Position numbers and translations under genes: made by a program. From positions 475,168 to 539,167 of the forward strand of contig CAYQEU010000001.1 in assembly GCA_964416765.1 (NCBI GenBank): DNA of 64,000 bases, in the 5' to 3' direction. The notes beneath the pieces were generated by a model that saw only the letters and a program-made list of their open reading frames with translations, was not told where the DNA came from and searched no databases. Below, one piece after another: positions 1-27,976 of the stretch (positions within the stretch are counted from its first letter, which is position 1; the number at the start of each line of letters is the position of its first letter). The DNA comes from an uncultured Candidatus Saccharibacteria bacterium (GTDB lineage: Bacteria; Patescibacteriota; Doudnabacteria; UBA920).

Positions 1-1
1 A

Positions 2-142
2 AACGAATTCACCATTACCGACGATACGTTTTTGGCGCGGGTGCTGCAGCACGAAATTGACCACTTGAACAACATCCTGATCGCCGACAAATTTACCAAA
101 GTAACCCAGGGAGCGGATCTTCTGCCTCAATATCAGCCATGA
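2..142 (+). CDS. def: Peptide deformylase, C-terminal fragment (5' end outside window)
   Basis: Frame-2 translation ...ARVLQHEIDHLNNILIADKF...; QHEIDHLNG-type motif 3 of peptide deformylase; stop TGA overlaps next ATG (ATGA). Confidence 0.8.
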   Translation, partial: NEFTITDDTFLARVLQHEIDHLNNILIADKFTKVTQGADLLPQYQP

Positions 143-675
143 AATTCATAAAAGACATACTAGTCATAGACGTTGAGACCACCGGCCAGGACGTGGATAA
201 AGACAGCATTATACATTTGGCCGGAGTTGTATTAGACAAAGATAACCTGCTAGAGAAGAACTTTTTTTCTTCCTACGTACGCGTTAGCTTGCTTGATGGA
301 ACCATTAACCAGCACGCCCAGCTCCTTGGCATCCCGTTCGACCTCCTGCGCAAGAGTCCGAAAGTCTACGATACTATTAAAGCGTTTCGTGGTAACCTCG
401 GCCGCGACTATTTACTGGCGGTGCACAACATCGACAAAATTTTGTTCCTGCGCAACGCATTCCGGAAAACTTTACTGCCCTGGGACTACGACCCGCATAT
501 TTTGGAATTATGGACGCTCGGCTATATTTACACCTTGAATTACGGCATCAAGAAAATGCCAACTTTCCACACATTCCTCGACCATTTTAATTTGAAGCTT
601 AAAAACCGCGCGGACGCTTTGGAGCGCGCGCGGCTGTCGGCGGAAATTTTCCGCCGCATCATTAAAGAAATCTAA
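139..675 (+). CDS. DnaQ-like DEDD exonuclease-fold protein; Exo III motif degenerate (H and D replaced), possibly catalytically inactive paralog
   Basis: Exo I VIDVETTG and Exo II VHNIDKILFL present; Exo III region reads KNRADALERA instead of H-x4-D; translationally coupled to def and next gene. Confidence 0.6.
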   Translation: MKFIKDILVIDVETTGQDVDKDSIIHLAGVVLDKDNLLEKNFFSSYVRVSLLDGTINQHAQLLGIPFDLLRKSPKVYDTIKAFRGNLGRDYLLAVHNIDKILFLRNAFRKTLLPWDYDPHILELWTLGYIYTLNYGIKKMPTFHTFLDHFNLKLKNRADALERARLSAEIFRRIIKEI

Positions 676-676
676 C

Positions 677-1243
677 ATGTTCAAAAGGGACTTACTTTTG
701 TTTGACATTGAAGCAACGGGCATCAATATCGCCAAGCACGAAATGATTCAGCTGGCAGCTATTTTGCTGGACAAAAATACCTTGAAAGAAAAAGGCACTT
801 TCACCACATATATCAAGCCCAAAAAGTGGTCACAGCGAAGCCGCGAAGCCATGGCGGTAAATAAGATTACCTGGGACCAGCTCAAGGACGCGCCGACCAT
901 GCGGGTGGCGTTAAAGAAGTTTATCAAACAATTTTCCACTAACGTTACTCTCGCCCACTATGGGGGCATGATTGACATCCCGTTTTTGGCCACGGCTTTC
1001 GCGACCGAGAAAATGAAGTACCCTTACGACTACCACGTATTCGACCTGTGGCCGGTGTTTTATGTGTATATGGCCAATAAAAAGAAATTAAATGACCCAG
1101 CTAAAGTCCCCGGGTTTAGTCTCGACGGCATCGCCAGGCACTTCAAGGTTAAAGTGCCTGGCAGCCGCCACGACGCGCTGACAGATTGCCGCGTGGAAGC
1201 GGAAGTCCTACGTCACGTTCTGAAAGAAATTAAGACCCGCTAA
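677..1243 (+). CDS. DEDDh 3'-5' exonuclease (DnaQ/epsilon-like), all three Exo motifs intact
   Basis: Exo I FDIEATG, Exo II AHYGGMIDIPFL, Exo III SRHDALTDCRVEA; stop overlaps fmt start (TAATG). Confidence 0.7.
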   Translation: MFKRDLLLFDIEATGINIAKHEMIQLAAILLDKNTLKEKGTFTTYIKPKKWSQRSREAMAVNKITWDQLKDAPTMRVALKKFIKQFSTNVTLAHYGGMIDIPFLATAFATEKMKYPYDYHVFDLWPVFYVYMANKKKLNDPAKVPGFSLDGIARHFKVKVPGSRHDALTDCRVEAEVLRHVLKEIKTR

Positions 1244-2199
1244 TGAAGATTGTTTTTTTTGGCACTTCTGAAAATTCAGTTATTCTTCTAGAAACCGTCG
1301 CGCCACATTTCCAGGTTGTGGGGATTGTGACGATGCCTGATGCGCCGATAGGACGCAAACAAACACTTACCCCCAGCCTGGTGGCACAGTTTGCAGCTAA
1401 TTCGGAGGTGTTAAAGGATGTACCCGTGTTCAAGCCCCTCAACCCCAAGGAAGATGAGTTCTTGAATGACCTGAAAGCTTTGGAAGCTGACATGTTTTTG
1501 GTGCTGTCTTACGGAAAAATTCTGCCCCAAGAAGTGATTGATATTCCCCCGCTTAAAACAGTTAACGTTCACCCTTCCCTGCTTCCGCTCTACCGCGGCG
1601 CCACCCCGATCCAGAGTACACTCCTTAACGGCGAAACTGTGACCGGCAATAGCATAATTGTGATGGATCCTGAGATGGACCATGGTCCCCTTCTCGCCCA
1701 GCATGAAGTGGGAATTGACCCACACGAAACCTATCCGGAATTAGAAGCCAAGCTCGCCCGTGACTCCGCGCAAATGATTTTGGATGTCATTCCGCAATAT
1801 GCCGAGCAGCGCCTGGAACCCCGCGAACAGGAACATGAAAAAGCTACCTTCACAAAATATATCAGCAAAGCCGATGGCAAGGTTAATTGGGAAGAACCAG
1901 CAGAAAAAATCTATAACCGCTATCGCGCGTTCTACCGCTGGCCCGGAATCTGGACCACCTGGAATGGTGAAACGCTAAAAATTATTGAATGCCGCCCGGA
2001 CAAGGAGGGAACCGCGCTTACGGGCGGTGCGGTAAGCGCTCTACCCGCCGGAACCGTAACCGAAAACGGCGCTGTTGTATGCGGCAATGGGACTACCCTG
2101 GAACTGCTCAAAGTCCAGCGCGCCGGCAAAAACACAGTCACCATTCAGGAATTCCTCAATGGCAACAAAAATTTTATTGGGAGTCGATTAGGAAATTAG
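1243..2199 (+). CDS. fmt: Methionyl-tRNA formyltransferase
   Basis: N-terminal formyltransferase domain, HPSLLPLYRGATPIQ motif, C-terminal Fmt domain; genomic context after def. Confidence 0.9.
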   Translation: MKIVFFGTSENSVILLETVAPHFQVVGIVTMPDAPIGRKQTLTPSLVAQFAANSEVLKDVPVFKPLNPKEDEFLNDLKALEADMFLVLSYGKILPQEVIDIPPLKTVNVHPSLLPLYRGATPIQSTLLNGETVTGNSIIVMDPEMDHGPLLAQHEVGIDPHETYPELEAKLARDSAQMILDVIPQYAEQRLEPREQEHEKATFTKYISKADGKVNWEEPAEKIYNRYRAFYRWPGIWTTWNGETLKIIECRPDKEGTALTGGAVSALPAGTVTENGAVVCGNGTTLELLKVQRAGKNTVTIQEFLNGNKNFIGSRLGN

Positions 2200-2214
2200 A
2201 TTTGGAAGATAGCA

Positions 2215-2246
2215 AAAACTGCCTTATTTAAGGCAGTTTTATTTTA
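2215..2246. terminator. Bidirectional rho-independent terminator between convergent fmt and mltG
   Basis: Stem aaaactgcctta / taaggcagtttt with 2-nt loop, flanked by A-run and T-run. Confidence 0.6.
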
Positions 2247-3108
2247 AGTATAACGCTTTGTTCTTGAGGTGTTCGGCATACGTCTTGCTAAACACGACTT
2301 CTCCGGACGGCTGTTTATGGAGGAAATAGTAATAGTCTGATTTTTCCGGGTAAAACGCCGCTTCAATGCTGGCTAATGAGGGGTTGCAAATCGGTCCTGG
2401 CGGAAGTCCCGGATACCTATAAGTGTTATACGGTGAGTTAATTTGCAAATCCGCGTTGGTCGGGGTGGGATTATCCTTGCCGCTGACGTAATTCACAGTG
2501 GCATCACTTTCCAAGGGCTGGCCCGAGGTTAGGCGGTTGTAAAACACTCCGGCAATTAGCTTGCGCTCGTTCTCTGTTGAGTTGCCGCTTTCCTTTTCCA
2601 AAATAGACGCGAGGGTCATAATCTGGTGGAATGTCATCCCCTTTTTGCCGCCTAGGGTTAGTGTTTCGTAACCAGGGATTGTATAACTGTCGGCCGGCTT
2701 AATTCCGAGCGTGTCCACCCGGGCGGTGAAGTTATCCAGCAGTTTTTTTATGACCGTGTCGGTGGTGGCGCTTTTGGCAAACCGGTAAGTGTCGGGAAAT
2801 AAGTATCCTTCCAAGCCCTGCTTGGCGGGGATTTTGATGTACGGGTTGTCAGTAGGGATATTGGTTTTCGCGGCGGAGACAAAACTGGCAGCAGGGCCCA
2901 AACCGGCTTTTTCCAAAGCACCAGCCATTTCATTTATGTTCCAACCCTCAATTAAGGTGACCTGAGTTTCCTCAGCTTTTTTTTGCAGTTGGGCGATTCT
3001 TTCATTACGCGCGCGTTCGTAATACCGTAAACCTAAAACGCCGGCTACTCCGGCGGCGAGGATGAGCAAAACGAAACCGATGATAAACCCGCGCAGTATC
3101 CAGTTCAT
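2239..3108 (-). CDS. mltG: Endolytic murein transglycosylase MltG (YceG-like)
   Basis: N-terminal TM anchor; GYLFPDTYRF, AGVFYNRL, YNTYRYPGLPPGPICNP motifs typical of YceG/MltG. Confidence 0.85.
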   Translation of the reverse strand: MNWILRGFIIGFVLLILAAGVAGVLGLRYYERARNERIAQLQKKAEETQVTLIEGWNINEMAGALEKAGLGPAASFVSAAKTNIPTDNPYIKIPAKQGLEGYLFPDTYRFAKSATTDTVIKKLLDNFTARVDTLGIKPADSYTIPGYETLTLGGKKGMTFHQIMTLASILEKESGNSTENERKLIAGVFYNRLTSGQPLESDATVNYVSGKDNPTPTNADLQINSPYNTYRYPGLPPGPICNPSLASIEAAFYPEKSDYYYFLHKQPSGEVVFSKTYAEHLKNKALYLK

Positions 3109-3548
3109 TACTCACCCATTACTTTGATATGCATCTTGCGGGGGCGGCCGCCATCAAATTCAACGAAGAAAATACTTTGGCGCTCACCCAGCAGGGGTTG
3201 GCCGCTTTCGATGACGAAGGTTTCTGATGAGCCAAACAGGAATGACTTAACGTGCGCCTGGCCGTTGGACCTCTCGTTAACCGATACGTTTTCGCGGACT
3301 TCAAAAAGGTCGTGGCTGTAGCTGATGTCGAGCGGCACCAAGCGGTAGACCGCTTTCATGATGTCCTGGGCCAAAAGCGGCTCGTCGTGAGTACAGCGGA
3401 CACTGGCGGTGGTGTGCGGAGTAAAGACAGTGGCAGTGCCTGTTTGGACACCGGATTCGGTGATGGCCTGTTTAACCTGGTCGGTTACGTTGAGCAGCTG
3501 GAACTGCTTATTGGTCTTTAATTCGAGCGTTTTTAGAAGCTGTTTCAT
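3108..3548 (-). CDS. YjbQ/UPF0047 family protein (secondary thiamine-phosphate synthase-like)
   Basis: TTASV...NGQAHVKS...EFDGGR pattern characteristic of YjbQ family; 146 aa. Confidence 0.7.
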   Translation of the reverse strand: MKQLLKTLELKTNKQFQLLNVTDQVKQAITESGVQTGTATVFTPHTTASVRCTHDEPLLAQDIMKAVYRLVPLDISYSHDLFEVRENVSVNERSNGQAHVKSFLFGSSETFVIESGQPLLGERQSIFFVEFDGGRPRKMHIKVMGE

Positions 3549-3577
3549 TTGGTTTCAAGAGGAAAATTGATGGGTTA

Positions 3578-3586
3578 ATTATACCA
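3578..3586 (-). promoter_or_regulatory. Extended -10 promoter element TGGTATAAT (minus strand) upstream of yjbQ-like gene
   Basis: Forward attatacca = reverse complement TGGTATAAT, ~29 nt upstream of start codon. Confidence 0.4.
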
Positions 3587-3714
3587 CATATGTCCAATTA
3601 TTTGATTATTGGGTGAAGAATGTCTATTTCGGCTGACAAAGAAGCATCAATAATTATGTTGATTTTTGCTTATTTTGTTGTTACACTACAACAGCATAAT
3701 GATTCTAGGCCGCT

Positions 3715-4494
3715 ATGGACAAGGCAATTATCCAAAAACTGTTAGATTTTGGGCTCTCTGAGAAAGAGGCCAGAATTTATATTTCCCTTCTAGAGCTCGA
3801 AGTGGCAACGGCTTTTGAAGCGGCCAAGCATGCCGGCATCAACCGAAGTTCCGCTTACGTTGTACTGGAGAGCCTGAAAAAGAAAGGGTTGGTTGCGGTG
3901 TCAGAAGACAAGAAAGTGAGCCGATACGTTGCCTCCGCTCCAGACATATTACTTCAATCCGCCAGCCTAGAAGCCAAGCGCCACCAGGAAATCAAAGCAG
4001 GCATCGAGTCCGTTATACCCGAACTTAAGGCACTCCACAAGGATACAAAGATGAAGCCGGTGGTAAAAGTGTTTGAGGGAAAAAATGGGCTAATTTCGTT
4101 GTTTGAAGATTCCTTGTACGCTAAAGAAAGAGAAATAAGAATTGTTTCTTCATTAGAAAAGATTTTTTCTTTATTGCCTGAATACGTACCAAGCTACATA
4201 CAAAGACGCTGGAAAAAACGGATAAAAATGTTTGGCATTCATCCCAGCAAACCGACTCTTATACAATATGAAAAGATGGAGAAAGAAAGTGAGGATGAAG
4301 CGATCTTTATCCCCGAAGAAAATTATAAAATGCCAGCAGACTTTGCGATTTACGATAACAAAATTGCTTACATGACCGGCGACAACGGGGGCTTCGGTGT
4401 AATTATTGAGAGCACTGATATGGCAAATGCCATGAAAAGTATTTTCGACCTAGCTCACAAAGAAGCAAAGAGAATAGCAGCAAAGAACAAATAA
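3715..4494 (+). CDS. TrmB-family transcriptional regulator
   Basis: N-terminal HTH resembling TrmB (LDFGLSEKEARIYISLLELE...INRSSAYVVLESLKKKGLV); convergent with histidine kinase, zero spacer. Confidence 0.6.
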   Translation: MDKAIIQKLLDFGLSEKEARIYISLLELEVATAFEAAKHAGINRSSAYVVLESLKKKGLVAVSEDKKVSRYVASAPDILLQSASLEAKRHQEIKAGIESVIPELKALHKDTKMKPVVKVFEGKNGLISLFEDSLYAKEREIRIVSSLEKIFSLLPEYVPSYIQRRWKKRIKMFGIHPSKPTLIQYEKMEKESEDEAIFIPEENYKMPADFAIYDNKIAYMTGDNGGFGVIIESTDMANAMKSIFDLAHKEAKRIAAKNK

Positions 4495-6156
4495 TTACTT
4501 ATGTTCGGCTTCCGCTAAATCCACTACAGCTGTTTCCTCCAAGTCGCTGTTAAGGGGCAACGAGAAAATAAAGGAAGATCCCTTACCTTCTCCTTCACTT
4601 TCCACCCATATCTTTCCGTGATTTTGTTCGATAATTACTTTAGCTACGTATAGCCCAAGCCCTAAACCGGTAGCGGCAGTGGCTGCGTCTTTTCCTCGTG
4701 TATATTTGGAAAACAGAGTCGGTGCAATTTTAGGGTCCACTCCCCTACCTGTGTCTTTAACTTTCATGATTAAATCTGTAGGAGTTTTCTCTATACTCAT
4801 GGTTACTGAGCCTTGTTTGGTGTACTTTATTGCATTGTCGACCATGTTATTTATCACTTGTCTGACTTTTTCCTTGTCCATCATTACTGCGGGCAATGGT
4901 TCCGTAGGGACATTGTATACAAGTTCTATTTTCCTCATTTTAGCCTGAGGAAGTAACTGATCATAGGTTATTCTAGCTAATTCGGCCAGATCGGCTTTTT
5001 CAAAGAAGAATTCCATCTTACCCCTTTCGATGCGTGAGGCATTCAACAGGTCATCAATCAAGGAAATCTGGGAGTTATTTGTAGACTGCACCCTTTCAAG
5101 AGCAGACTTTACCTCTTCATTAAGATCCCCAAAATCCCCGGATAGCACGGCTCCAATGTACCACTTAATTGTAGCGGGGGGCGTGCGTAACTGGTGACTA
5201 GCAATAGAGATAAACTCTGCGCGTGCTTTATCCAGCGCTTCTAGCTTGACATTAGCTTCTTTCAACTGCTCCGTTAGAATTTGGAGTTGCTCTCTCTGTT
5301 TTACTTCATTAATTACGCTCCGTATAAGGAGTATTCCTACACCCAGTACGAGAACAAAAACACTTGATCTAAATATTACTATAGTTAGAGTATTAGAAAC
5401 AATCACTTCAATAAAGGTAGCTATCCCAAGAACAAAGACCAATATCTCCGTGGAAAGTATTTTTACATTTAGGAGTTTGCGACGAATTATGGCATAGCTC
5501 GCAGAAACTATGAATGGAAAGATAAACACCCCTCCCATTGGAACAAAACGTGGATTATTAAGAAAGGCAGGAAAAATAAAATTAAACACGACTAAAAGCC
5601 CAAACATTATCAACATTCCTACTAAGAAAGGCTTTAACTGTTTCTTAACTAAGTCATCGGAACGTATTATGCGTACTACTAGTCTGAACAACGAATAAGC
5701 TATTACGCTGAGAACAAATAAACCAAAAATTGCAATACCCGGGCCGTTTTGAACTCTGGATACTCTACCTTGTGTAAATTCAAGAACCCTGACAAAGACG
5801 TATGGCGTAAGAGTGAATAACGAAATAGCTCCGGTAGCAACAACCAACCATCTATCTTTAGCTCTTCTTGACCTTTCTTCGTTCGGTACCACGTACAAAA
5901 GGTAAAACAATGACGTTACCAACCAACAAGCTAAAAAGATTTCAAACCTTAGTAACCAAATGACTAACGACTGAGATTGGAATTGGTAACTTAGATAATT
6001 AACGACCGTCCAACTTATTGCTACTAAACAAAAATAGAAGAAATAACGGTTAGTTATACTTTTTGGGTTATTATAAAAGACCGCGTAACCTAGTATAAGG
6101 GTAGCTGCTACGCTGATACCAACCGACAACAGATCCAAATTGGTTAGAAAACCCAT
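4495..6156 (-). CDS. Sensor histidine kinase with ~6-TM N-terminal sensor region
   Basis: H-box FISIASHQLRTP, N-box DNAIKYT, G1 DTGRGVD, G2 GLGLGLYVAKVIIEQNHGKIWVESEGEGKGSSF; hydrophobic N-terminal half. Confidence 0.85.
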   Translation of the reverse strand: MGFLTNLDLLSVGISVAATLILGYAVFYNNPKSITNRYFFYFCLVAISWTVVNYLSYQFQSQSLVIWLLRFEIFLACWLVTSLFYLLYVVPNEERSRRAKDRWLVVATGAISLFTLTPYVFVRVLEFTQGRVSRVQNGPGIAIFGLFVLSVIAYSLFRLVVRIIRSDDLVKKQLKPFLVGMLIMFGLLVVFNFIFPAFLNNPRFVPMGGVFIFPFIVSASYAIIRRKLLNVKILSTEILVFVLGIATFIEVIVSNTLTIVIFRSSVFVLVLGVGILLIRSVINEVKQREQLQILTEQLKEANVKLEALDKARAEFISIASHQLRTPPATIKWYIGAVLSGDFGDLNEEVKSALERVQSTNNSQISLIDDLLNASRIERGKMEFFFEKADLAELARITYDQLLPQAKMRKIELVYNVPTEPLPAVMMDKEKVRQVINNMVDNAIKYTKQGSVTMSIEKTPTDLIMKVKDTGRGVDPKIAPTLFSKYTRGKDAATAATGLGLGLYVAKVIIEQNHGKIWVESEGEGKGSSFIFSLPLNSDLEETAVVDLAEAEHK

Positions 6157-6164
6157 TTGTTATA

Positions 6165-7229
6165 TTATGAGTATTTTATTTCTGGCTTCAATCGGGATGA
6201 CATCCCGCTTGGTGGGGTACTATATCCAATTCTAAATAACATAGCTACGCATTGTTGATCGTCCAACTTAGCTACATCTTGAATGATGCCATACGCATCA
6301 CTTATTATTTTAGCATGTTCTTCCGAAAGTGTTTGGTACTCCCCTGCCTTAATGCGCTGCGCTAAATAAACGATTCCTGTTACAGGATGCATACTTATTC
6401 CTAATTGCTCAGCATTAAGCCATATTCTTTGACTAATTTTGCCTGCTTGGAAAAACATCTTGTCATCATTTGGGACTACGACAAGACCGATGGCTGATCC
6501 ATTTGAATAAAGTTTAGAGTTATCCTTTGCTATAAAACGGGAAAGTTTTAAGGTTTGATTTAAAATGCGAGCTAGGGGCCAAACTTGTAGAATTTTAAAG
6601 AATATTAATTTTTGTAAGGGCAACTCCATCGTTTTCAAGTATAGACCTGTTTTTAGACTTCTCTCGGACGATGTAGTCCATCTGATATCCGCGTAAAATA
6701 GATCATGCAACTGTCTATTTTCCAACATAACTACTTCATTTTTTGACACCGCTTCACCAAGTAGTTGTTTTTGCTTTGGATCCTCAATTAAAATGAATTT
6801 TACATCTGGAGAGCCATTCCCTTCATGTAACAAGGAGTTTTTGTGTTCATCCTTGAGAGGAATATCTGCATAGAATTTCCTATTAGTCTGTCTAGACCTT
6901 ATAGAATTGACTAAGGGATTGGTGGTTGGGGCTGCAGGCATTAACTCAACTCGAAAGGTGTGAGAAGAATCCTCAGAATCGGGCCAAACATTTACATTGA
7001 CGGAATAGCCTAAGGTTTCTGCAACCAAGGAAATATTAGTTAAAAGAGCTCCGTGTGCTACTAATGTACCCCGTTGTCTATAATTAAATAGTACGTTATC
7101 CTTTTCCGGTAAGCTGTATACATCTATCACATTTTCGCGAACAACAAAATGCCACGGTTGAGAATTGTCCCCTGACGGTGCAAAGACGGCTTCCTCCAAA
7201 ATTTCCGTAATTTTCTTGGCGATTTCCAT
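6165..7229 (-). CDS. Nitroreductase-family oxidoreductase, apparently two nitroreductase-like domains (SagB/McbC-like architecture)
   Basis: N-terminal APSGDNSQPWHFVV nitroreductase signature; 354 aa, twice the usual domain length; 9-nt gap to HK gene. Confidence 0.55.
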   Translation of the reverse strand: MEIAKKITEILEEAVFAPSGDNSQPWHFVVRENVIDVYSLPEKDNVLFNYRQRGTLVAHGALLTNISLVAETLGYSVNVNVWPDSEDSSHTFRVELMPAAPTTNPLVNSIRSRQTNRKFYADIPLKDEHKNSLLHEGNGSPDVKFILIEDPKQKQLLGEAVSKNEVVMLENRQLHDLFYADIRWTTSSERSLKTGLYLKTMELPLQKLIFFKILQVWPLARILNQTLKLSRFIAKDNSKLYSNGSAIGLVVVPNDDKMFFQAGKISQRIWLNAEQLGISMHPVTGIVYLAQRIKAGEYQTLSEEHAKIISDAYGIIQDVAKLDDQQCVAMLFRIGYSTPPSGMSSRLKPEIKYS

Positions 7230-7236
7230 AACTTAC

Positions 7237-8352
7237 TTAAAGTAAATTCATCTTACCTAAAATATCATTCCTTTCTTGGTCCCGGTCTGACTTCGTGTTA
7301 GGTTCAAAGATATCCTCAAGACTCACATTATACTTACCTCCCTTAATGTTCTTCCCCTCAGCGAAGGCACGAAGCAGATAGGCTGTAACTACTCCGCTAA
7401 ATGAAGCGGCACTTCCTAGCTGAGGCCAGGAATACAGTGTCTTCCCCACTTCCATAAGTGAAGACAGCATTCTAGGAACTATATATTCGGGTCCTGCAAC
7501 TTTAGTTGCCAGCCGGGGTAGTTCTGTAGGCGGAAAGTTCATGAATTGTTCCATTCCAAAATCACCCAACGCACCGTTAAATAGCTGTAATTCTCGATCT
7601 AAATCATATCTCTCCACGTCCACAATTACACTATCTCCGTTATCAGTTGCCATAATTACAGGGGTTCCTGTCTCTCTTGCAACTTCTCTCAACCGAATTT
7701 TCATGGGTAAGTTATCAACACCCTCAACCAATATATTCAAGCCACTCAGGAAATCAACAATATTATTTTCATCTATACCTTCTTCGTAGAGATCAATTTC
7801 TGCATAAGGATTAATTTCTGCGATGATTCTGGCAGCCACCAGGGCTTTGTTCGTGCCTAGAACTGAGGCTCCGTATCTTAACCTATTCAAATTAGAAACA
7901 GATACTTCATCAGGATCGGCTAACTTAACCTGCTTTGCTCCTCCCATTATAGCAGTGGTTAGCGCGCCATGACTTCCTACGCTTAAACCTGCGAAACCCA
8001 CTCGGTAGTTGTAGTATTTCTCTTGTTCAGAGGAAGTAATTAGATTTTTATTTCTCGCCGTTCGCAATTCTAAATATTCCTTCTCAGGCAAATAGTGTAT
8101 CAAGCAATTAGACCATTCAAAATAAAACCACTCCCCGCACTCTTCGTAAGACTTCCCTTTCGTCTCAACCTTTAGAAACTCGTTTAGCTCAGTTTCGTAG
8201 TCGGTTAAAAAACGAAATTTTGGATTCCTTATAAAAAATAATTCTTTTAGTTGTTCCTCATAGCCATCGACTAACTTGACGTTTCGCTCTTCAATAAACT
8301 CATTCAATCCGCCGTCTGTGAAACTCTTTTTTTCTGCTGAAAATTTTATCAT
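7237..8352 (-). CDS. ThiF/MoeB/E1-like adenylyltransferase-family protein with ~115-aa N-terminal extension
   Basis: Rossmann GxGxxG YRVGFAGLSVGSHGALTTAIMGGAKQVKLADPDEVSVSNLNRL typical of E1-like ThiF family; 8-nt gap to nitroreductase. Confidence 0.7.
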   Translation of the reverse strand: MIKFSAEKKSFTDGGLNEFIEERNVKLVDGYEEQLKELFFIRNPKFRFLTDYETELNEFLKVETKGKSYEECGEWFYFEWSNCLIHYLPEKEYLELRTARNKNLITSSEQEKYYNYRVGFAGLSVGSHGALTTAIMGGAKQVKLADPDEVSVSNLNRLRYGASVLGTNKALVAARIIAEINPYAEIDLYEEGIDENNIVDFLSGLNILVEGVDNLPMKIRLREVARETGTPVIMATDNGDSVIVDVERYDLDRELQLFNGALGDFGMEQFMNFPPTELPRLATKVAGPEYIVPRMLSSLMEVGKTLYSWPQLGSAASFSGVVTAYLLRAFAEGKNIKGGKYNVSLEDIFEPNTKSDRDQERNDILGKMNLL

Positions 8353-8355
8353 AGT

Positions 8356-9852
8356 TTATGCCTTATTTAACCATTGTTGTTTAATACCACTCTTAAAATG
8401 AGTGTCGTGGTTGTAAGTCCAAAAAACAATATAAGGAGCAGTTCTTTTAATACCAAGCATTTTTGTTAGTTCTTTGAATTCGGAATTATGCTGAAGCAAT
8501 GTCGATATAACACTTTTTTGCGTGATTGCTCGGAGTTTTTTACTCACCGTAACTCTTGGCTTCATCTCAACATTAACTTCTAAAAATTGATTGCTCTTTT
8601 TGTCATAGACCGTTCTCATAGAAAATTTACCCGTTAGGTAAGGATGAAGGGTTCTACTCTCGAGAGCAATTTTAATAGTCTGCGGATAGACTTGTAAACC
8701 ATATAATGTCGTTGAAAAATCGCTTCGTTCATACACGTAGACGAAAGGTAGCGCATTCAAGCTGACTTTAGCTCCTTTTGCTTCTGATATGAGGTCGATC
8801 CCGTTCCTGCTAAATGCCGCAATTATTTCAGACAATCTATATGTACCTCCGCGGTCTCCAATATCGTAACGCAAAAAAGGTGTAGCACTATCGGCAGATA
8901 TAAGTACCTTACCTTCTTCCTCGTCGAATGCTATGAAGCTCGGGTTGTATTGGGCTAAGGTTGGAATTTTGTTATCCCTAAACAACTCTTGATAAACTTC
9001 TGCATGCTGAAGTGCTAGTCTTCTAATGAATATGCTCGCTGGGGTTTCAAATGCCATGGCTCCTAGCTCAGCACTTCCATATAGATTAAGAGTATCATTA
9101 TAGATATTTTTAATCTTTCCTCTTTTTACCACATAATCTCTGAAGTTTTCGGTAAAACTTTCTGCCGCAAACAGAAGCCTGAGGTTGAATTTAGAAAAAT
9201 CAATTTTCTCCAGCTTTGCTTCGTCCAATAGATCCTTTATGAAAGGAGGGTATCCTGCCAATATAACGTTATCAAAATTGACAGCAAGATTCCTCAGCGC
9301 GTGAAAGATCTCTTTTTTGTTTATTCCTGGAGTGATAATTGTCACAGGATGTCCTCTCAACGCTGTTATACGAAATGCCTGATATGTAATCAAACCCCCA
9401 ATCCAAACTCCCATACCAAAACAGTCTACTAGTAAAGTAGATCCTTTAGGCCCATTTTTTAGGAAGAATTCGGCTATAAGCGAATAATGTTCGTCCACAT
9501 CCTCTGTTCTAGGAAAGTATGTAGGTGACCCCGTAGATCCAGAAGTAGCCGTCATCACTTGACCCTTTTCCCGAAGCAAATTCTTCCAAGTTGTATCCGT
9601 TAAAGGGAACTTTTTAAAATAATTAGTTTTTGAAATAGGAGGTATGGCCGAAATGTCCGAATATTTTTTTATATTTCGAATCTTGATTCTAGCTTTAGAA
9701 AGATACCTCTTATAAGCAGTAACACCCTTGGTCATACTGTGAAATAACCGAAACGTAAGGTGTCTTTGTTTAGTCCCCCAAAAATTTTCAGCGCGTGCAA
9801 GCGTAGATGAGGTAATAGCGCGTGTTTCCTGAAGAGACTTAAAACTATTCAT
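8356..9852 (-). CDS. Adenylate-forming enzyme of the phenylacetate-CoA ligase / F390-synthetase (PaaK-like) family
   Basis: AMP-binding P-loop-like TSGSTGSPTYFP; overall length and YGSAE motif consistent with PaaK/CapK family. Confidence 0.6.
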   Translation of the reverse strand: MNSFKSLQETRAITSSTLARAENFWGTKQRHLTFRLFHSMTKGVTAYKRYLSKARIKIRNIKKYSDISAIPPISKTNYFKKFPLTDTTWKNLLREKGQVMTATSGSTGSPTYFPRTEDVDEHYSLIAEFFLKNGPKGSTLLVDCFGMGVWIGGLITYQAFRITALRGHPVTIITPGINKKEIFHALRNLAVNFDNVILAGYPPFIKDLLDEAKLEKIDFSKFNLRLLFAAESFTENFRDYVVKRGKIKNIYNDTLNLYGSAELGAMAFETPASIFIRRLALQHAEVYQELFRDNKIPTLAQYNPSFIAFDEEEGKVLISADSATPFLRYDIGDRGGTYRLSEIIAAFSRNGIDLISEAKGAKVSLNALPFVYVYERSDFSTTLYGLQVYPQTIKIALESRTLHPYLTGKFSMRTVYDKKSNQFLEVNVEMKPRVTVSKKLRAITQKSVISTLLQHNSEFKELTKMLGIKRTAPYIVFWTYNHDTHFKSGIKQQWLNKA

Positions 9853-10901
9853 TACTGTTTATTAAATATTTTTTCTGCCATAGCATCTGCCACGGCGTCA
9901 GGATTCAATTTTTGTTTCGATGATTCATCCAAAACTTTCTTGAGCGTCTTCTTCAGATTATTGATATTTTTTAATACCCTTGTTTTATCATATCCACCTG
10001 GTAAAAGTTCATCCGCTACATTGATCAACCCTCCCGCATTTGCAATATAATCAGGAATGTGAAGAATGCCTTTCTGGAACAACTTATCCTTTATACTTTC
10101 ATCCGCTAATTGATTATTAGCGGTGCCGCAAACAATTGGAGCTCTGAGGCTTTTTAATCTCTCATCATCAATATCATTTCCCAACGCACAGGGACAATAT
10201 ACGTCTACTTCAGTTGTCTGCATTTCGCTCATTGTCACCGGCTGAATGTTAGGATGCAATTTTGATAACAAGTCTATTTTGGTCGAATCTATATCGGTAG
10301 CAAAAACTACTCCACCGGCCTTAGCTAATAACCAAGCTAATTCGCTTCCCGTTTTCCCCACTCCTTTTATGGCGAATTTTTTTCCCGTAATATCGGAATT
10401 GTTATACAAGTGTTCTAAAGCTACTTGAATACAAAGGAATACGCTCATGGCGGCGTATTTGGATGGATCCCCTGCCAAACCAGTTTTACCAATGAAGTAC
10501 GGACTGTACTGAAGCATGTATTGCACCTGTGGCTCGCTAAGGCCAACATCTTCGCCAGTATAAAATCTCCCTTTGAGAGAGCTTACTTTTTCGGCATAGG
10601 ATTTTAGAATTGCGTTGGTATCAGAGTGTGCCAAATCAGCAATGATTACACCTTTTCCTCCTCCAAAGGGTAGTCCTGCGATTGCACATTTATAAGTCAT
10701 AGCACGCGAAAGCCTTAAAACATCTTTTAATGCTTGTTCTTTGTCTTGGTAATTAAATATGCGGGTACCGCCCAATGCTGGTCCCAAATTTGTGTTGTGA
10801 ACGGCAATATAACCGGAAATTCCCGAGTTGTCTTCCGACAAGTCAACGACCTGTTCGTGATCTTGGTATTCCGGTGTTTTGTTAATATCTATGTAATCCA
10901 C
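9852..10901 (-). CDS. Glu/Leu/Phe/Val dehydrogenase family (leucine/phenylalanine dehydrogenase-like)
   Basis: GGTRIFNY...AIAGLPFGGGKGVI catalytic Lys motif; C-terminal NAD Rossmann GVGKTGSELA; 349 aa. Confidence 0.8.
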   Translation of the reverse strand: MDYIDINKTPEYQDHEQVVDLSEDNSGISGYIAVHNTNLGPALGGTRIFNYQDKEQALKDVLRLSRAMTYKCAIAGLPFGGGKGVIIADLAHSDTNAILKSYAEKVSSLKGRFYTGEDVGLSEPQVQYMLQYSPYFIGKTGLAGDPSKYAAMSVFLCIQVALEHLYNNSDITGKKFAIKGVGKTGSELAWLLAKAGGVVFATDIDSTKIDLLSKLHPNIQPVTMSEMQTTEVDVYCPCALGNDIDDERLKSLRAPIVCGTANNQLADESIKDKLFQKGILHIPDYIANAGGLINVADELLPGGYDKTRVLKNINNLKKTLKKVLDESSKQKLNPDAVADAMAEKIFNKQ

Positions 10902-11017
10902 TGTTGCGATATAACCCCTCTAAATCTCTATAATTATAGCTAATTTAGGCATATATATCAACATTTAGCACTAAGTCAGGAGTTGACTTTTAAGTAAAAA
11001 AACTATGTAATATACCC

Positions 11018-11467
11018 ATGCCCTGTATTTTTTGCCAAATTGTCTCAGGGGAAGCGCCATCCCATAAAGTCTGGGAAAGTGAATCCCATATGGCTTTCCT
11101 ATCAATTTTCCCCAATACCGAAGGGGTAACCGTGGTGGTACCCAAAGAACACTACCCCAGCTATGTCTTTGATATGCCAGAATTAGCCTTCATGAGCCTT
11201 ATTGCCGCCGCCAAAGAAGTTGGCCTTTTACTGGACTCCAAACTGGATGACGTAGGCCGTACGGCCATGGTTGCCGAAGGCTTCGGTGTGGACCACGCCC
11301 ACATCAAACTTTTCCCCATGCATGGCACCAAGGGCGATTGGGTCCCCCGCCATTCTGACATCAATACCTATTACGAAACCTACCCAGGCTATATCTCCAC
11401 CCACGATTCCGACAAGGCGGACGATTCTGCCCTGGCTGACCTGGCCAAGAAGATAAAAAATGGGTAG
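11018..11467 (+). CDS. HIT-family (histidine triad) hydrolase
   Basis: HIT motif VDHAHIKLFP; CxxC at N-terminus; 149 aa. Confidence 0.75.
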   Translation: MPCIFCQIVSGEAPSHKVWESESHMAFLSIFPNTEGVTVVVPKEHYPSYVFDMPELAFMSLIAAAKEVGLLLDSKLDDVGRTAMVAEGFGVDHAHIKLFPMHGTKGDWVPRHSDINTYYETYPGYISTHDSDKADDSALADLAKKIKNG

Positions 11468-11624
11468 CAACGGCGTTTCGTTACTACCCAATTAATCATG
11501 GACTGGAATAATTTAAAAGAAACTGAAATGAACGGTCATACGGCGAATGGACAGCCAAAATACTGGCATCTCTTTGACATTATAGCGCGCAAACAATAGC
11601 CTATTCGCCAAAACAGTACTTTTC

Positions 11625-11670: not shown

Positions 11671-12150
11671 ATGGCAGACATAGAAAAACCGAAAAAGATC
11701 CTCATGATTGAGGACGACGTGGCCATGAGGGAAATTGTCATCCACAAGCTCATGACCCATGGTTTTGAAGTTAAAGAAGCTGAAGACGGAAAGCAGGGCA
11801 TTGATTTAGCTATTGCTGAAAAGCCTGACCTAATCTTGCTTGATTTGATGCTCCCGGAAGTTGACGGGTTCCAGGTTCTGGAAACTGTCCGCTCAAACCC
11901 GGACCAGAAAGTAGCCAACACCCCTATTATCATTTTGAGCAACCTCTGGAGCAACAAGGATATCCTTCGCACCAAGGCACTTAAAGTACAGGCTTACATG
12001 GTTAAGGCTTACTTTACCACCGAAGAAATCTTAACTAAAATCAACGAGATACTGGCTGCCGGACCCGACGCCCCGGCAGCAATTCCAGTCGAAGGAGCGC
12101 CATCCTCCGCCGCTCCCGCCTCACCGCCACCCGGAACACCGGCGCAATAA
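11671..12150 (+). CDS. Stand-alone receiver-domain response regulator (CheY-like) with Pro/Ala-rich C-terminal tail
   Basis: ILMIEDD...DLILLDLMLPEVDG...IIILSN receiver motifs (phospho-accepting Asp in LLDLML); no output domain. Confidence 0.8.
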   Translation: MADIEKPKKILMIEDDVAMREIVIHKLMTHGFEVKEAEDGKQGIDLAIAEKPDLILLDLMLPEVDGFQVLETVRSNPDQKVANTPIIILSNLWSNKDILRTKALKVQAYMVKAYFTTEEILTKINEILAAGPDAPAAIPVEGAPSSAAPASPPPGTPAQ

Positions 12151-12212: not shown

Positions 12213-12503
12213 TTAGAGGATGGAATCCTTAGCAGCTTTTGCTACGCGAAACTTAACTACAGTCTTGGCAGGAATCTGGATAGATTCGCCGGTTGCCGGG
12301 TTGCGGCCCATGCGAGCATCGCGGTGCTTCTTCTGAAGCTTACCAAGGCCAGGAATGGTGAATTCGCCGCTCTTCTTGGTTTCGCTGTAAGCCAACGCAA
12401 CCATGGCATCCATCATTTCGCTAACTTCCTTGCGAGTCTTGCCGAGCTTGTCGGCCAAGTATTGTAAGGTCTCTGACTTAGTCATTGTTTGTACCTTTTG
12501 CAT
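12213..12503 (-). CDS. hup: HU-family nucleoid-associated DNA-binding protein
   Basis: ARMGRNPATGESIQIPAKTVVKFR arm motif typical of HU/IHF; 96 aa. Confidence 0.85.
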   Translation of the reverse strand: MQKVQTMTKSETLQYLADKLGKTRKEVSEMMDAMVALAYSETKKSGEFTIPGLGKLQKKHRDARMGRNPATGESIQIPAKTVVKFRVAKAAKDSIL

Positions 12504-12686: not shown

Positions 12687-13664
12687 ATGCTAGAATGGTT
12701 TAAAGACATGCCAACACACGCTGATACTTCGAAAAAGTACAATTTCAAAAAGAGGGAAATTTTGGATTTATTAGCAAAAGAGTTCAAAATCACTAGTCCA
12801 CAATTAAGCCTTATTAAGTCAGGGCTGATTAATACTTCCATTAAGGTATCCTCTGCTAAAGAAGGTAAGTATTTGTTGAGGGTATACAAAGATCAACCGG
12901 AAGCAAAAATTCTGCGCGAACTGCTATTTATGGAGAAAATGAGCCGGAATCAAATCCCTGTACCCAAAATCTTTTTATCGAGAACCAAGTCTAAGATTAT
13001 TAAGTTTATGGATGATAGCGGAATAAAAAGAAAAGCTGTATTATTTGAGTTTAAAAGAGGTAAGCATATTTCTGCTTCACAACTAAATATGATTCAGGAG
13101 GTTGCTAATATTCATGCTCGCATGCACAAGGCAACCGGCAAGCTTACTCCTGCTTCTAAAGGAGTAAGAAACGCTATATTATGGCTTAAAGATGAACACG
13201 ATTCCGCTCAATACAAACTAAAATCTCTACCCGCCCAGAAGCAAAAACTCGATGTTATCTTTAGTAGCGTTATTAAAAAATTTCAAAAGTTACCTGTCCT
13301 CCCTCAAGGTTTGGCACACCTTGATTTTGATAGTTCCAATATTTTAGTGACCGGTCAAAAGGTCACTGGTATTATTGATTTTGACGACCTAGACCAAGTC
13401 CCTTTTATTATGGATTTGGGGTATTCCATATGGTGGTGGGTTTTTAATAATAACATCGTTAACTTGGAAAAAATTATTAATAACTATACTTCAGCCTACC
13501 AGAATGTCCGGCCGCTATCGTCAAAAGAACGTGAATCCCTCCGGTTGTTTATATCATTACGCAATATTACTCTAGCTTACTTATTGTTCGTTAACCTCCC
13601 CAAACGTCCAATCGTGGCTAAACTAAATAAAGCGATCTCTCTGAACAACCAGATTAACCGCTAA
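12687..13664 (+). CDS. Phosphotransferase-family kinase (APH/choline-kinase/homoserine-kinase-II-like); alternative start at 12708 possible
   Basis: Catalytic loop HLDFDSSNILV (HxDxxxxN) and IIDFDD (DFD metal-binding); Lys-rich N-lobe. Confidence 0.55.
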   Translation: MLEWFKDMPTHADTSKKYNFKKREILDLLAKEFKITSPQLSLIKSGLINTSIKVSSAKEGKYLLRVYKDQPEAKILRELLFMEKMSRNQIPVPKIFLSRTKSKIIKFMDDSGIKRKAVLFEFKRGKHISASQLNMIQEVANIHARMHKATGKLTPASKGVRNAILWLKDEHDSAQYKLKSLPAQKQKLDVIFSSVIKKFQKLPVLPQGLAHLDFDSSNILVTGQKVTGIIDFDDLDQVPFIMDLGYSIWWWVFNNNIVNLEKIINNYTSAYQNVRPLSSKERESLRLFISLRNITLAYLLFVNLPKRPIVAKLNKAISLNNQINR

Positions 13665-13668
13665 TCCT

Positions 13669-14799
13669 ATGTATATCCCCTTCCATGAACCTCACCTATC
13701 GAAAAAGACGGAATCAATAGTGAAAAAAGTTTTAGAGAGTAAGTGGCTTACTACGGGAAATTACGCCAAATTGTTTGAAAAGGAAATAGCTAGTTTCCTT
13801 CGGGCCGAGCACGTAACCGCGGTCTCATCGTGTACTGCCGCTCTGCATGTGGCTTACCTTGCCGTCGGGCTGGAACCAGGAGACGAGGTAATTGTTCCAA
13901 GCTTCACCTTTTGCTCTACTATAAACATGATTGTTAATACTGGTGCTAAACCAGTATTTTGTGATATCGATGAGCAATCCTTATGCTTAGACCCTAAGGA
14001 CGTGGCAAGAAAAATTTCCCCCAAGACCAAAGTAGTATTAGCCGTACATTTCGGCGGGACCCCGGCTGACCTAGATGCCATAAAAAAAGTTACCCAAGAC
14101 AAAAATATAGTTATAATTGAAGACGCAGCCCATGCCTTCACTACAAAATATAAAGGCAAGTATATTGGCACCCACGGTAACATCTCCTGTTTCAGCTTTT
14201 ATGCCACCAAAGTTTTAACTACTGGGGAAGGTGGTCTGCTTACTGTTCCTACATCATCAATGCTTACCACAGCTAAAACTATAGCCAATCATGGAGTCCC
14301 CGAGCAAAAGCACCACCGTTATTCTAAGTTAGGCAATCCTGGATACGAGGTGATTTATCCAGGATATAAATACAACCTAAGCGACCTCCACGCTGCAGTT
14401 GGCTTATCACAAATTGATTCAATTGAAGCTGACTTGAAAAAGCGCTCTGCCATAGCAAGCACTTATCAGCGCCTTTTAGGAAAGAATAGTAATCTAGTGC
14501 TCCCCCTTAACCCTGCCCAAAGAGGTAGCCAGCATTCTTGGCACTTGTTTACTACGCAAGTTGTTAAATCCAAGCACAGGGATCCCCTGCTGAGGCACTT
14601 AAAGCAAAAAGGTATAGGTACTAGTGTTCATTTTATCCCCAACCACGAGCAGCCATATTATAAAAAAATGTTTCCAAAAGTAAGACTACCAGTTACCGAA
14701 AGGGTCGGATCTACCATTTTGTCTTTGCCCATATATCCAGGATTAAAACCAGATGCCTTAAAATACATTGCTAAGGCCATAAACGAATTCTTATGGTAA
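13669..14799 (+). CDS. DegT/DnrJ/EryC1/StrS-family PLP-dependent sugar aminotransferase
   Basis: SCTAALHVA..., GDEVIVPSFTF, SFYATKVLTTGEGG (PLP Lys) motifs. Confidence 0.8.
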   Translation: MYIPFHEPHLSKKTESIVKKVLESKWLTTGNYAKLFEKEIASFLRAEHVTAVSSCTAALHVAYLAVGLEPGDEVIVPSFTFCSTINMIVNTGAKPVFCDIDEQSLCLDPKDVARKISPKTKVVLAVHFGGTPADLDAIKKVTQDKNIVIIEDAAHAFTTKYKGKYIGTHGNISCFSFYATKVLTTGEGGLLTVPTSSMLTTAKTIANHGVPEQKHHRYSKLGNPGYEVIYPGYKYNLSDLHAAVGLSQIDSIEADLKKRSAIASTYQRLLGKNSNLVLPLNPAQRGSQHSWHLFTTQVVKSKHRDPLLRHLKQKGIGTSVHFIPNHEQPYYKKMFPKVRLPVTERVGSTILSLPIYPGLKPDALKYIAKAINEFLW

Positions 14800-18749: not shown

Positions 18750-18751
18750 TC

Positions 18752-19642: not shown

Positions 19643-19644
19643 AA

Positions 19645-20328: not shown

Positions 20329-20348
20329 AAGAGTATTATAGTTTTTCA

Positions 20349-20390
20349 GGACAAAAAAATACAGGGCCAACCAAAGTGCGGTCAGCCCTG
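20349..20390 (-). terminator. Putative rho-independent terminator after RNHCP gene
   Basis: Minus strand: cagggc-loop-gccctg followed by tattttttt immediately after TAG stop. Confidence 0.4.
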
Positions 20391-20849: not shown

Positions 20850-20872
20850 AGCCCTCCTTAACTTTGTGCATA

Positions 20873-20881
20873 ATTATAGCA
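20873..20881 (-). promoter_or_regulatory. Extended -10 element TGCTATAAT upstream of RNHCP gene
   Basis: Forward attatagca = reverse complement TGCTATAAT, ~24 nt upstream of start; SD-like aaggagg between. Confidence 0.45.
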
Positions 20882-20903
20882 CAAAAACGTTATTTTTGCA
20901 AGT

Positions 20904-21614: not shown

Positions 21615-21671
21615 ATTTAAATAATTATAATAAAAATGCTCTTAAAATCAATCTTGTTAAAAACAAATGTC

Positions 21672-21703: not shown

Positions 21704-21710
21704 ATATATT

Positions 21711-22322: not shown

Positions 22323-22324
22323 AG

Positions 22325-27925: not shown

Positions 27926-27976
27926 GGGAGTGTTTATACCCTAATTGTAAGGACTTTGGCCCAGGGGCGCAAACGG

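Follow-up and report, generated by a model that had tools for sequence, protein, structure and literature searches.

A five-gene cassette encoding an amino-acid dehydrogenase, a PaaK-family ligase, a ThiF/E1-like adenylyltransferase, a tandem nitroreductase and a sensor histidine kinase was analyzed in a 64,000-nucleotide stretch of DNA from an uncultured Candidatus Saccharibacteria bacterium (GTDB lineage Doudnabacteria, UBA920; contig CAYQEU010000001.1, positions 475,168 to 539,167), hereafter the window. This cassette is conserved across hundreds of species of the Candidate Phyla Radiation (CPR/Patescibacteria), in which the enzymes come linked with a sensor kinase of the membrane. Taken together, ThiF and the nitroreductase are by homology a split counterpart of the oxazolone synthetases OxzB, TrzS and TyzBC. 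We consider it likely that the cassette encodes a small-molecule pathway using cyclase/oxidase chemistry of the TrzS type and, with modest confidence, we lean toward a product of the oxazolone (azlactone) or N-acyl-dehydroamino-acid class that would be hard-wired to the cassette's own membrane sensor kinase. The computed support for this proposal comprises the gene content, the homologies, the catalytic motifs found intact in all five proteins, a linkage that holds in both directions and a series of gene fusions. It favors the general direction of the original prediction, made from the letters of the window, which had pointed to an uncharacterized small-molecule and/or signaling system.

The five genes lie in the same direction between positions 4495 and 10901, with neighbors spaced by 0-8 nt or overlapping by 1 nt, as follows:

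9852-10901, minus strand: NAD(P)-dependent amino-acid dehydrogenase (DH), 349 residues, GTG start at 10901
8356-9852, minus strand: PaaK-family ligase (LIG), 498 residues
7237-8352, minus strand: ThiF/E1-like adenylyltransferase, 371 residues, with an N-terminal extension of about 100 residues
6165-7229, minus strand: tandem nitroreductase (NTR), 354 residues
4495-6156, minus strand: sensor histidine kinase (HK), 553 residues, HisKA_7TM-HisKA-HATPase

From the dehydrogenase to the kinase the spacers measure -1, 3, 7 and 8 nt, the 7-nt gap being that between ThiF and the nitroreductase, and the single base shared by the dehydrogenase stop and the ligase start was read directly (cagTAATGaat). 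The five tightly packed co-directional minus-strand genes and the dehydrogenase-ligase overlap claimed by the original prediction are thus borne out in their coordinates, spacers and shared base, and its domain calls for the five proteins agree with the Pfam and NCBIfam searches by which domain assignments were checked throughout.

The association among these genes was assessed from two sides. An alignment of the ligase was searched against one genome per GTDB species, in which at least 585 species genomes harbor a confirmed ligase relative, and the best 80 loci were inspected. These loci come from metagenome-assembled genomes (MAGs) labeled as Paceibacteria, Doudna-, Kaiser-, Lipton-, Magasanik-, Woese-, Roizman-, Gottesman- and Taylor-bacteria, Saccharimonadales and others. 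In all related loci, six-frame stop-to-stop open reading frames, not curated gene calls, were annotated with profiles derived from the window proteins. Counting only the 52 ligase-anchored loci with at least 4 kb upstream and at least 6 kb downstream, we detected ThiF in 52, the nitroreductase in 49 (two further cases being ThiF-nitroreductase fusions missed by the profile), the kinase in 48, the dehydrogenase in 29 and a response regulator (RR) in 25, arranged in 17 different gene orders; one example, supported by source gene calls in a Wildermuthbacteria genome, reads NTR-ThiF-DH-LIG-HK-RR. The reverse search relied on the sensor domain of the kinase alone (a 10-sequence alignment) and on a metagenome collection, yielding 215 relatives of which the best 80 were inspected. 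Among the 42 of these with at least 5 kb upstream, 41 carry the nitroreductase, 39 the ligase and 38 ThiF. As only the best-scoring 80 loci per search were inspected, more distant members might have other contexts; even so, this set of genes was encountered again in 80 + 80 independent loci drawn from two collections, and its recurrence in hundreds of species excludes a chance juxtaposition. The original prediction had allowed that the proteins might turn out to be well-characterized orthologs normally occurring apart, with a co-localization not conserved in relatives, whereas they proved divergent and their linkage strongly conserved. Housekeeping identities as LeuDH, PaaK, MoeB/ThiF and NfsB were likewise rejected, all scores falling far under the curated cut-offs. 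As a separate observation, several cassette-bearing MAGs are titled "uncultured Gammaproteobacteria bacterium", among them locus L069 (OZ246401.1, a complete 0.94-Mb chromosome), whose cassette proteins are CPR-like; these labels are probably wrong.

The most informative homologies were found in the ThiF and nitroreductase pair. Against NF005901 (the "Rv1355c family"), residues 12-363 of ThiF matched model positions 23-353 of 722 with 289 bits, and the nitroreductase matched positions 375-713 with 167 bits. Both proteins also match, in ThiF-then-nitroreductase order, the 679-residue model NF011424/PRK14851 (191 bits and positions 328-661 for the nitroreductase), which we take to represent the OxzB-type architecture. 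The nitroreductase additionally scored 122 bits against the Acg family of FMN oxidoreductases, with Acg itself (2YMV) as its top match in the PDB, and conserves the motif APSGxNxQPW together with R113/N116/R117 and R333. In ThiF, the ATP-site Asp equivalent to D217 of TrzS and the Gly-rich loop are conserved. Its best structural neighbor is AclA from Tenacibaculum discolor (9egb). The extra N-terminal domain of ThiF noted in the original prediction is indeed present, although its extension of about 100 residues aligns with the Rv1355c family model and is hence a trait common to that family, not a novelty of this locus. A characterized member of the family acts on a small molecule (PMC12856293). 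TrzS, TyzBC and OxzB have been shown biochemically to cyclize and desaturate N-acyl aromatic amino acids (PMC12856293; PMC10404671; bioRxiv 10.1101/2020.06.11.147165), the split TyzB/TyzC and the fused OxzB acting on N-acyl-Tyr/Phe (PMC10404671; bioRxiv 10.1101/2020.06.11.147165). The earlier statement that this gene combination could not be mapped onto a described pathway accordingly holds only in part, since ThiF and the tandem nitroreductase map to the oxazolone synthetases OxzB/TrzS/TyzBC (PMC12856293; PMC10404671).

The ligase is the most divergent of the enzymes. It produced no Pfam match, neither to AMP-binding nor to AMP-binding_C_2, and reached only 47.8 bits against the PaaK model TIGR02155 (cut-off 646) over residues 30-263, the N-terminal half. 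The AlphaFold2 (AF2) model has a pLDDT of 86, and the top Foldseek matches were PaaK1/PaaK2 (E 1e-22, probability 1.0) and BT_0428, followed by NatL2, AjiA1 and ClxA, and then by 2-hydroxyisobutyryl-CoA ligase and McbA. The expected motifs (P-loop T103-SGSTG-P110, Y258-G259, E269-T270, D333 and K491) occur in at least 90% of 85 family sequences. This suggests a divergent adenylate-forming enzyme of the PaaK family (ANL superfamily), with a predicted two-domain fold holding the P-loop and the catalytic Lys. A bona fide phenylacetate-CoA ligase PaaK was rejected on account of the score far under the TIGR02155 cut-off and the missing paa context, as no paa genes were found among 160 cassette loci. 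The closest homologs of the ligase (45-68% identity) all belong to CPR lineages, and a profile search of 1.84 billion representatives returned 795 ligase clusters at E<=1e-30. Among the fold relatives, condensation without CoA is a property of NatL2, AjiA1 and ClxA, which belong to the PaaK family and act in benzoxazole pathways, as well as of McbA, an amide-bond synthetase. No N-acyl-amino-acid synthase was detected in the window cassette or among the recurrent families inside or flanking 80 loci, where the recurrent unassigned families comprise an aminotransferase, an alpha/beta hydrolase, methyltransferase-like proteins, an S9 peptidase, a bactofilin and a dihydroorotate dehydrogenase. The pairs of ThiF and flavin-dependent oxidase described so far all come with an N-acyl-amino-acid synthase. 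Considering the lack of an acyltransferase in the cassette, the position of the ligase as the sole invariant extra enzyme and its kinship in fold with CoA-independent condensers, we infer that it may form the amide directly and thereby replace the N-acyl-amino-acid synthase that uses acyl-CoA, a proposal that we regard as quite possible while falling slightly short of calling it probable.

The dehydrogenase carries both ELFV_dehydrog_N and ELFV_dehydrog domains, and its top NCBIfam match is the Trp dehydrogenase ScyB (293.7 bits, under the 600-bit equivalog cut-off). In the PDB, the highest score was obtained with the Trp dehydrogenase (TrpDH) 5B37 at 244 bits, Leu dehydrogenase (LeuDH) reaching 231 bits. 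Residue-level alignments revealed a 3-residue deletion common to the dehydrogenase and TrpDH, and a pocket with Gly in YTGEDVG and Leu in NAGGLINV, as in TrpDH, where four LeuDHs have Ala and Val. From mutagenesis of Phe dehydrogenase (PheDH; G124/L307) versus LeuDH (A113/V291), we take this Gly/Leu signature to mark a large aromatic pocket. The catalytic and NAD(P)-binding residues K83, D118 and the GxGxxG loop (G180/G182/G185) are conserved. The protein would therefore be an amino-acid dehydrogenase of the Leu/Phe/Trp subfamily with a pocket more similar to those of TrpDH/PheDH than to that of LeuDH, which agrees with the use of aromatic amino acids in all known oxazolone pathways. A dehydrogenase adjoins the ligase on its upstream side in 34 of 74 loci; in 8-9 loci, this slot directly upstream of the ligase is taken by a class I/II pyridoxal-phosphate aminotransferase of HisC-like type (225 bits), and 24 of the 74 have neither. 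As dehydrogenase and aminotransferase constitute non-orthologous routes between an amino acid and its 2-oxo acid, it is this step that appears to feed the ligase, while the 24 loci devoid of both enzymes mark the module as dispensable. The dehydrogenase, which the original prediction counted as a cassette member, is thus present in the window but stands outside the invariant core: it is an optional precursor-supply module that about half of the loci contain and for which some others have the aminotransferase instead.

Gene fusions tie the enzymes into one pathway. ThiF is fused to the nitroreductase in L069 and L073, reproducing the OxzB/TrzS architecture, and the ligase is joined to its partners as dehydrogenase-ligase (P0262), ligase-ThiF (P0266), ThiF-ligase (P0360) and dehydrogenase-ligase-ThiF (P0335). 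An alpha/beta hydrolase is likewise fused to ThiF (L063) or to the nitroreductase (L061), and a hydrolase of this kind (C-C hydrolase/AcoC type) is inserted in at least nine loci. Other variable genes include a 312-residue methyltransferase-like family, always located between the nitroreductase and the kinase, an S-adenosylmethionine-dependent methyltransferase and, inside the cassette in 3-4 loci, an S9 peptidase with an N-terminal beta-propeller (prolyl-oligopeptidase/acylaminoacyl-peptidase type), found at:

L016, 11714-13564: S9 peptidase insert
L035, 11560-13386: S9 peptidase insert
L058, 12516-14492: S9 peptidase insert

Enzymes of the S9 family can free N-acyl amino acids from peptides, and the inserted peptidase would thereby offer a second way of providing ThiF with its substrate. 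Taken together, the hydrolase, methyltransferase and peptidase inserts fit the pattern of tailoring genes that is typical of a biosynthetic cluster. We also observed local duplications, namely two ligase-ThiF pairs in tandem (L033:4646-12205), one ligase flanked by two sets of ThiF and nitroreductase (L149:180-8243), a tandem pair of sensor kinases (L063:13417-16661) and kinases on both sides of the cassette (L074:1-8941), which suggests that the cassette diversifies by duplication. A lineage-specific synteny was seen in five loci of Magasanikbacteria type (L041, L046, L054, L063 and L068), in which a bactofilin gene follows the kinase (15410-15916 in L041), three of them having a dihydroorotate dehydrogenase upstream of the cassette.

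The kinase combines a HisKA_7TM sensor (33.8 bits, above the Pfam cut-off) with HisKA and HATPase_c domains. Its sensor displays about 8-9 hydrophobic segments between residues 9 and 277, connected by short loops and with no extracytoplasmic domain, and conserved positions comprise H321, the N-box and the G-boxes as well as W49, R70, P91 and G180 of the sensor. Polytopic sensors without an extracellular domain include receptors of hydrophobic autoinducers that are encoded beside the respective synthases, such as CqsS and LuxN. Its purely membrane-embedded sensor and its co-inheritance with the enzymes make the kinase a plausible receptor for an amphipathic product, and we tentatively suggest that it might sense the product of the pathway. 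A probable cognate partner is encoded divergently from the operon:

11671-12150, plus strand: receiver-only response regulator (RR), 159 residues, PF00072 at residues 10-124

This protein has no output domain. A response regulator adjoins the cassette in 25 of the 52 ligase-anchored and 14 of the 42 kinase-anchored loci, with high-scoring orthologs in the same divergent position in L004, L005, L030, L044 and L075.

The alternative that survives best retains the same chemistry and denies the kinase the role of product receptor, letting it sense an envelope, redox or host-contact cue; we consider this rather unlikely. The kinase would then simply switch on a protective or host-directed metabolite, for instance a stress-related or antimicrobial oxazolone or N-acyl-dehydroamino acid. 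Polytopic kinases lacking an extracellular domain do include sensors of membrane state, and a conserved linkage is compatible with plain regulation. The oxazolone loci of M. tuberculosis and proteobacteria are moreover tied to oxidative or antibiotic stress, with no receptor known (PMC12856293; bioRxiv 2020.06.11.147165), and the related N-acyl dehydrotyrosines are antimicrobial (PMC12856293). Against this stand the unusual tightness of the linkage in both directions, the location of the kinase downstream of the enzymes within one transcription unit, a layout characteristic of synthase-receptor pairs, and the fact that relatives of the sensor domain (the best 80 of 215) almost never occur without the enzymes.

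Returning to the proposed oxazolone-type pathway, the individual steps can be sketched as follows. The dehydrogenase, or elsewhere the HisC-like aminotransferase, would provide a building block by interconverting an aromatic amino acid with the corresponding 2-oxo acid, yielding either arylpyruvate as the acid or the amino acid from a scavenged 2-oxo acid. The ligase would adenylate a carboxylic acid and join it to an amino group to give an N-acyl amino acid, a step suggested by its position, fold and fusions. By homology to TrzS/TyzB/OxzB, ThiF would next adenylate the carboxylate of the amino acid and cyclize it to a 5(4H)-oxazolone, in which the nitroreductase, acting as a flavin-dependent oxidase (FDO) by homology to TyzC and the FDO domain of TrzS, would desaturate the C-alpha/C-beta bond. 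A hydrolase or methyltransferase may tailor the product in some genomes; ring opening, a candidate task of the fused hydrolases, would lead to an N-acyl-dehydroamino acid, the class of the stieleriacines and of the thalassotalic and kyonggic acids (PMC12479983). Finally, the polytopic kinase and the receiver-only regulator would either sense the product in an autoinducer-like loop or control its production. A further extension, which we hold to be doubtful, is a CPR-wide chemical signaling system in which this CoA-independent route would turn aromatic amino acids into diffusible oxazolone or N-acyl-dehydroamino-acid signals with the kinase as their cognate receptor.

Several points weigh against the pathway as proposed. 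The scores of ThiF and the nitroreductase sum to 456 bits, short of the curated NF005901 cut-off of 476, so that the two proteins are relatives and not certified members of that family. TyzC and TrzS require O2 (PMC10404671; PMC12856293), and many CPR bacteria inhabit anoxic groundwater. With about 16% identity to any solved PaaK-family enzyme, amide formation and CoA ligation cannot be told apart for the ligase, and a gene for an N-acyltransferase could lie at another place in the genome, the analysis having covered the cassette loci and 64 kb of a 681-kb contig. The direction and role of the dehydrogenase/aminotransferase step are ambiguous, neither enzyme being present in 24 of the 74 loci. 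On the sensory side, the response regulator has a receiver without output domain and adjoins the cassette in no more than about half of the loci, and a kinase that merely regulates the operon through another cue would be expected to show equal linkage to the enzymes. The substrates, the product and the kinase ligand are putative assignments made by homology or genomic context.

Three further explanations were weighed and found progressively less credible. Catabolism or salvage of aromatic amino acids, in which the dehydrogenase or aminotransferase would deliver an arylpyruvate, the PaaK-like enzyme would form an aryl-acyl-CoA or run in reverse for ATP, and the kinase would sense the substrate, is improbable. 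This layout does recall modules for aromatic amino-acid fermentation, BT_0428-type ligases are among the closest folds, and source annotations read phenylacetate-CoA ligase; yet neither a 2-oxoacid oxidoreductase nor a paa gene is recurrent in the cassettes, the dehydrogenase/aminotransferase is dispensable, the ligase reaches 48 bits where the PaaK cut-off is 646, and the invariant partners are ThiF and the flavin-dependent oxidase, which in some genomes form fusions with the ligase and with one another. A peptide- or protein-modifying system, whether akin to peptides made by the ribosome and modified after translation (RiPPs) or ubiquitin-like, with the E1-like enzyme activating a C-terminus and the others modifying the chain, was one option of the original prediction and is highly improbable. 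Clustering of 3447 small open reading frames located inside 161 cassettes or up to 700 bp away from them revealed no conserved family, the biggest clusters holding 4-6 members that were shadow frames or gene fragments; in the window, the intergenic gaps are 0-8 nt. Genes for E2, JAB, ubiquitin-like or YcaO proteins are absent, and the N-terminal extension of ThiF is shared with the Rv1355c model, whose characterized member acts on a small molecule (PMC12856293). The remaining option, an anti-phage defense island (E1-like, related to the cyclic-oligonucleotide-based CBASS systems), a possibility also raised by the original prediction, or a fortuitous assembly of housekeeping enzymes in a horizontally acquired low-GC island, is scarcely credible, for despite the low guanine-plus-cytosine (GC) content of the block, a weak PADLOC match to E1-E2 (Cap2) at 37 bits and an NCBIfam match to 6A-MBL cap2_3 at E 0.0036, the PADLOC matches are confined to generic E1, HATPase and receiver domains of at most 37 bits (about eightfold weaker than the Rv1355c-family match), no other cassette protein matches a defense family, the context is chromosomal (rpoA, alaS, fmt, mltG), and the cassette recurs in hundreds of species.

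The surroundings of the cassette in the window contain the following features:

3715-4494, plus strand: TrmB-family helix-turn-helix regulator, PF01978, convergent, its end 1 base before the kinase stop
10933-10961, minus strand: promoter-like site TTGATA-17 nt-TATAAT, 11/12 consensus matches
11018-11467, plus strand: HIT-family nucleotide hydrolase/transferase, PF01230, between the operon and the response regulator
11461-11490: hairpin with a 12-bp stem and a T-run, at the 3' end of the HIT gene

A GAGGGG Shine-Dalgarno-like motif lies between the promoter-like site and the GTG start of the dehydrogenase. Since promoter-like sites in the region as a whole were not more numerous than in shuffled sequences, only this single well-placed 11/12 site is reported, and it is to be read as a consensus match only. 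The TrmB gene, which the original prediction had described as converging on the kinase without a spacer, does so in the window and occupies the same convergent position in L002, L078 and L049; it was found near the cassette in only 4 of 52 loci, a weak association that points to a possible lineage-specific accessory. The HIT gene also adjoins the cassette in L001, L002, L004 and L154, and not in more distant loci. HIT enzymes hydrolyze acyl- or aminoacyl-adenylates, an activity that could matter beside two adenylating enzymes, its role here being uncertain. In L001, a relative with 95% identity, the genes upstream of HIT are different ones (an HD protein, a UDPG dehydrogenase, an AsnRS/AspRS-type synthetase, a GFO/IDH/MocA protein, a methyltransferase and a DegT protein), which identifies the HIT-side flank as variable. 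No known RNA or riboswitch was detected in the 3-13 kb region, nor any tRNA in the 64-kb window.

In composition, the claim of a low-GC block was upheld: the cassette has 39.4% GC, compared with 47.5% at positions 1-4400 and 50.0% at 22-64 kb, and the block continues past the cassette to about 22 kb, taking in a sugar-modification cluster. Across relatives, 78 of 86 loci have a cassette with less GC than the flanking DNA (mean difference -2.9 points), the offset thus being a general trait of the cassette that is exaggerated in the window. Beyond the response regulator, a lone gene for an HU/IHF-type DNA-binding protein (12213-12503, minus strand; PF00216, 88 bits) precedes the sugar/aminosugar modification cluster at 12687-21641, which makes up the remainder of the block. 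This cluster encodes two DegT-type aminotransferases alongside an APH/homoserine-kinase-like phosphotransferase and an NAD epimerase/dehydratase. It further holds genes for a FemAB-like/GNAT protein, a PIG-L deacetylase, an inositol-monophosphatase-like protein, an RNHCP-domain protein and a xylose-isomerase-like TIM barrel, as well as a fragment of UDP-glucose dehydrogenase that looks truncated. At the other end, two tandem genes for RNase T/DEDD-type exonucleases (178 and 188 residues; 139-1243, plus strand) stand directly upstream of fmt, the domain match of the first being weaker and partial. Two open reading frames had no Pfam match at E<=0.001, one of 569 residues (26234-27940, minus strand) and one of 214 residues (21705-22346, plus strand). 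The wider window is ordinary chromosome, with fmt, mltG, rpoA and alaS, and its RpoA shares 66-67% identity with named Patescibacteria/Candidatus Doudnabacteria relatives.

The CPR/Patescibacteria account for much of bacterial diversity and are regarded as being devoid of most biosynthesis, their genomes being tiny, and to our knowledge almost nothing is established about how they sense hosts, neighbors or their own density. A biosynthetic cassette kept with its own sensor kinase in hundreds of species and many CPR classes is hence unexpected, and with few enzymes and one kinase it offers an experimentally tractable handle. We found no description of it in the literature on CPR/Patescibacteria in connection with ThiF, nitroreductases, PaaK-type ligases, oxazolones or kinases; a survey of quorum-sensing genes in CPR does not mention the cassette families (PMC7567580), and the papers on TrzS and Tyz refer neither to CPR nor to a partner ligase. 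All components come from known superfamilies, and their core chemistry probably matches that of the oxazolone synthetases. What appears to be new is that the acylating enzyme and the precursor-supply module are different ones, that a kinase is an obligate partner and that the host range is new and very broad. For enzymology, the cassette predicts a new way to the N-acyl-amino-acid precursor of oxazolones, with a PaaK-family ligase instead of an acyl-CoA acyltransferase, and adds to the very few ThiF-like enzymes that have small molecules as substrates. The central question of the oxazolone field is what these molecules are for, and a conserved receptor-like partner is the first testable link to signaling. 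Should signaling prove true, the cassette would be the first dedicated signal-receptor system of CPR episymbionts and would give oxazolones a function, while the tailoring genes, the choice between dehydrogenase and aminotransferase and the duplicated cassettes would provide lineage-specific "dialects".

Compared with known systems, the cassette resembles CqsA-CqsS and LuxM-LuxN in that biosynthetic genes and a multi-pass histidine kinase without an extracellular domain lie side by side and are co-inherited, although its response regulator lacks an output domain and the resemblance is one of layout. The dehydrogenase finds its best matches in ScyB and the Phe/Leu dehydrogenases and shares the Gly/Leu pocket and the 3-residue deletion with TrpDH, yet it falls below the ScyB equivalog cut-off, and the scytonemin-pathway partners ScyA and ScyC are missing from the window cassette. 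With NatL2/AjiA1/ClxA and, more distantly, McbA, the ligase has in common the fold (Foldseek E 1e-15 to 1e-17) and the adenylation motifs, and these enzymes provide the precedent for PaaK-like formation of an ester or amide bond straight from an acyl-adenylate; it differs in its low identity (about 16%), its greater length (498 versus about 430 residues), its own family undetected by Pfam and the lack of a benzoxazole-type amidohydrolase partner in the window cassette. OxzAB of Pseudoalteromonas rubra, TyzACB of M. tuberculosis and the NasY-ThiF-NTR clusters behind N-acyl dehydrotyrosines (bioRxiv 10.1101/2020.06.11.147165; PMC10404671; PMC12479983) likewise hold ThiF and a nitroreductase in a tight operon, some clusters of both kinds carrying methyltransferase tailoring genes. 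Their hallmark N-acyl-amino-acid synthase is however missing from the CPR cassette, in which a fatty acyl-CoA is an unlikely acyl donor, and a kinase linkage has not been reported for them. A further close system is TrzAS (Rv1356c-Rv1355c) of M. tuberculosis and its relatives, which produces an N-acyl tryptazolone (PMC12856293). In the window, the cassette differs from it by the replacement of the TrzA-type acyl-CoA N-acyltransferase with a PaaK-family ligase, accompanied or not by a dehydrogenase or aminotransferase, and by the separation of the two halves into individual genes; the CPR cassette also has an integral sensor kinase, CPR instead of Actinomycetota hosts and scores under the family cut-off. 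Despite these differences, ThiF and the tandem nitroreductase together are homologous to TrzS from end to end, both have the N-terminal extension of ThiF and the Asp of the adenylation motif, the fused ThiF-nitroreductase architecture exists in some CPR genomes, and the precursor of the CPR cassette, too, is probably an aromatic amino acid.

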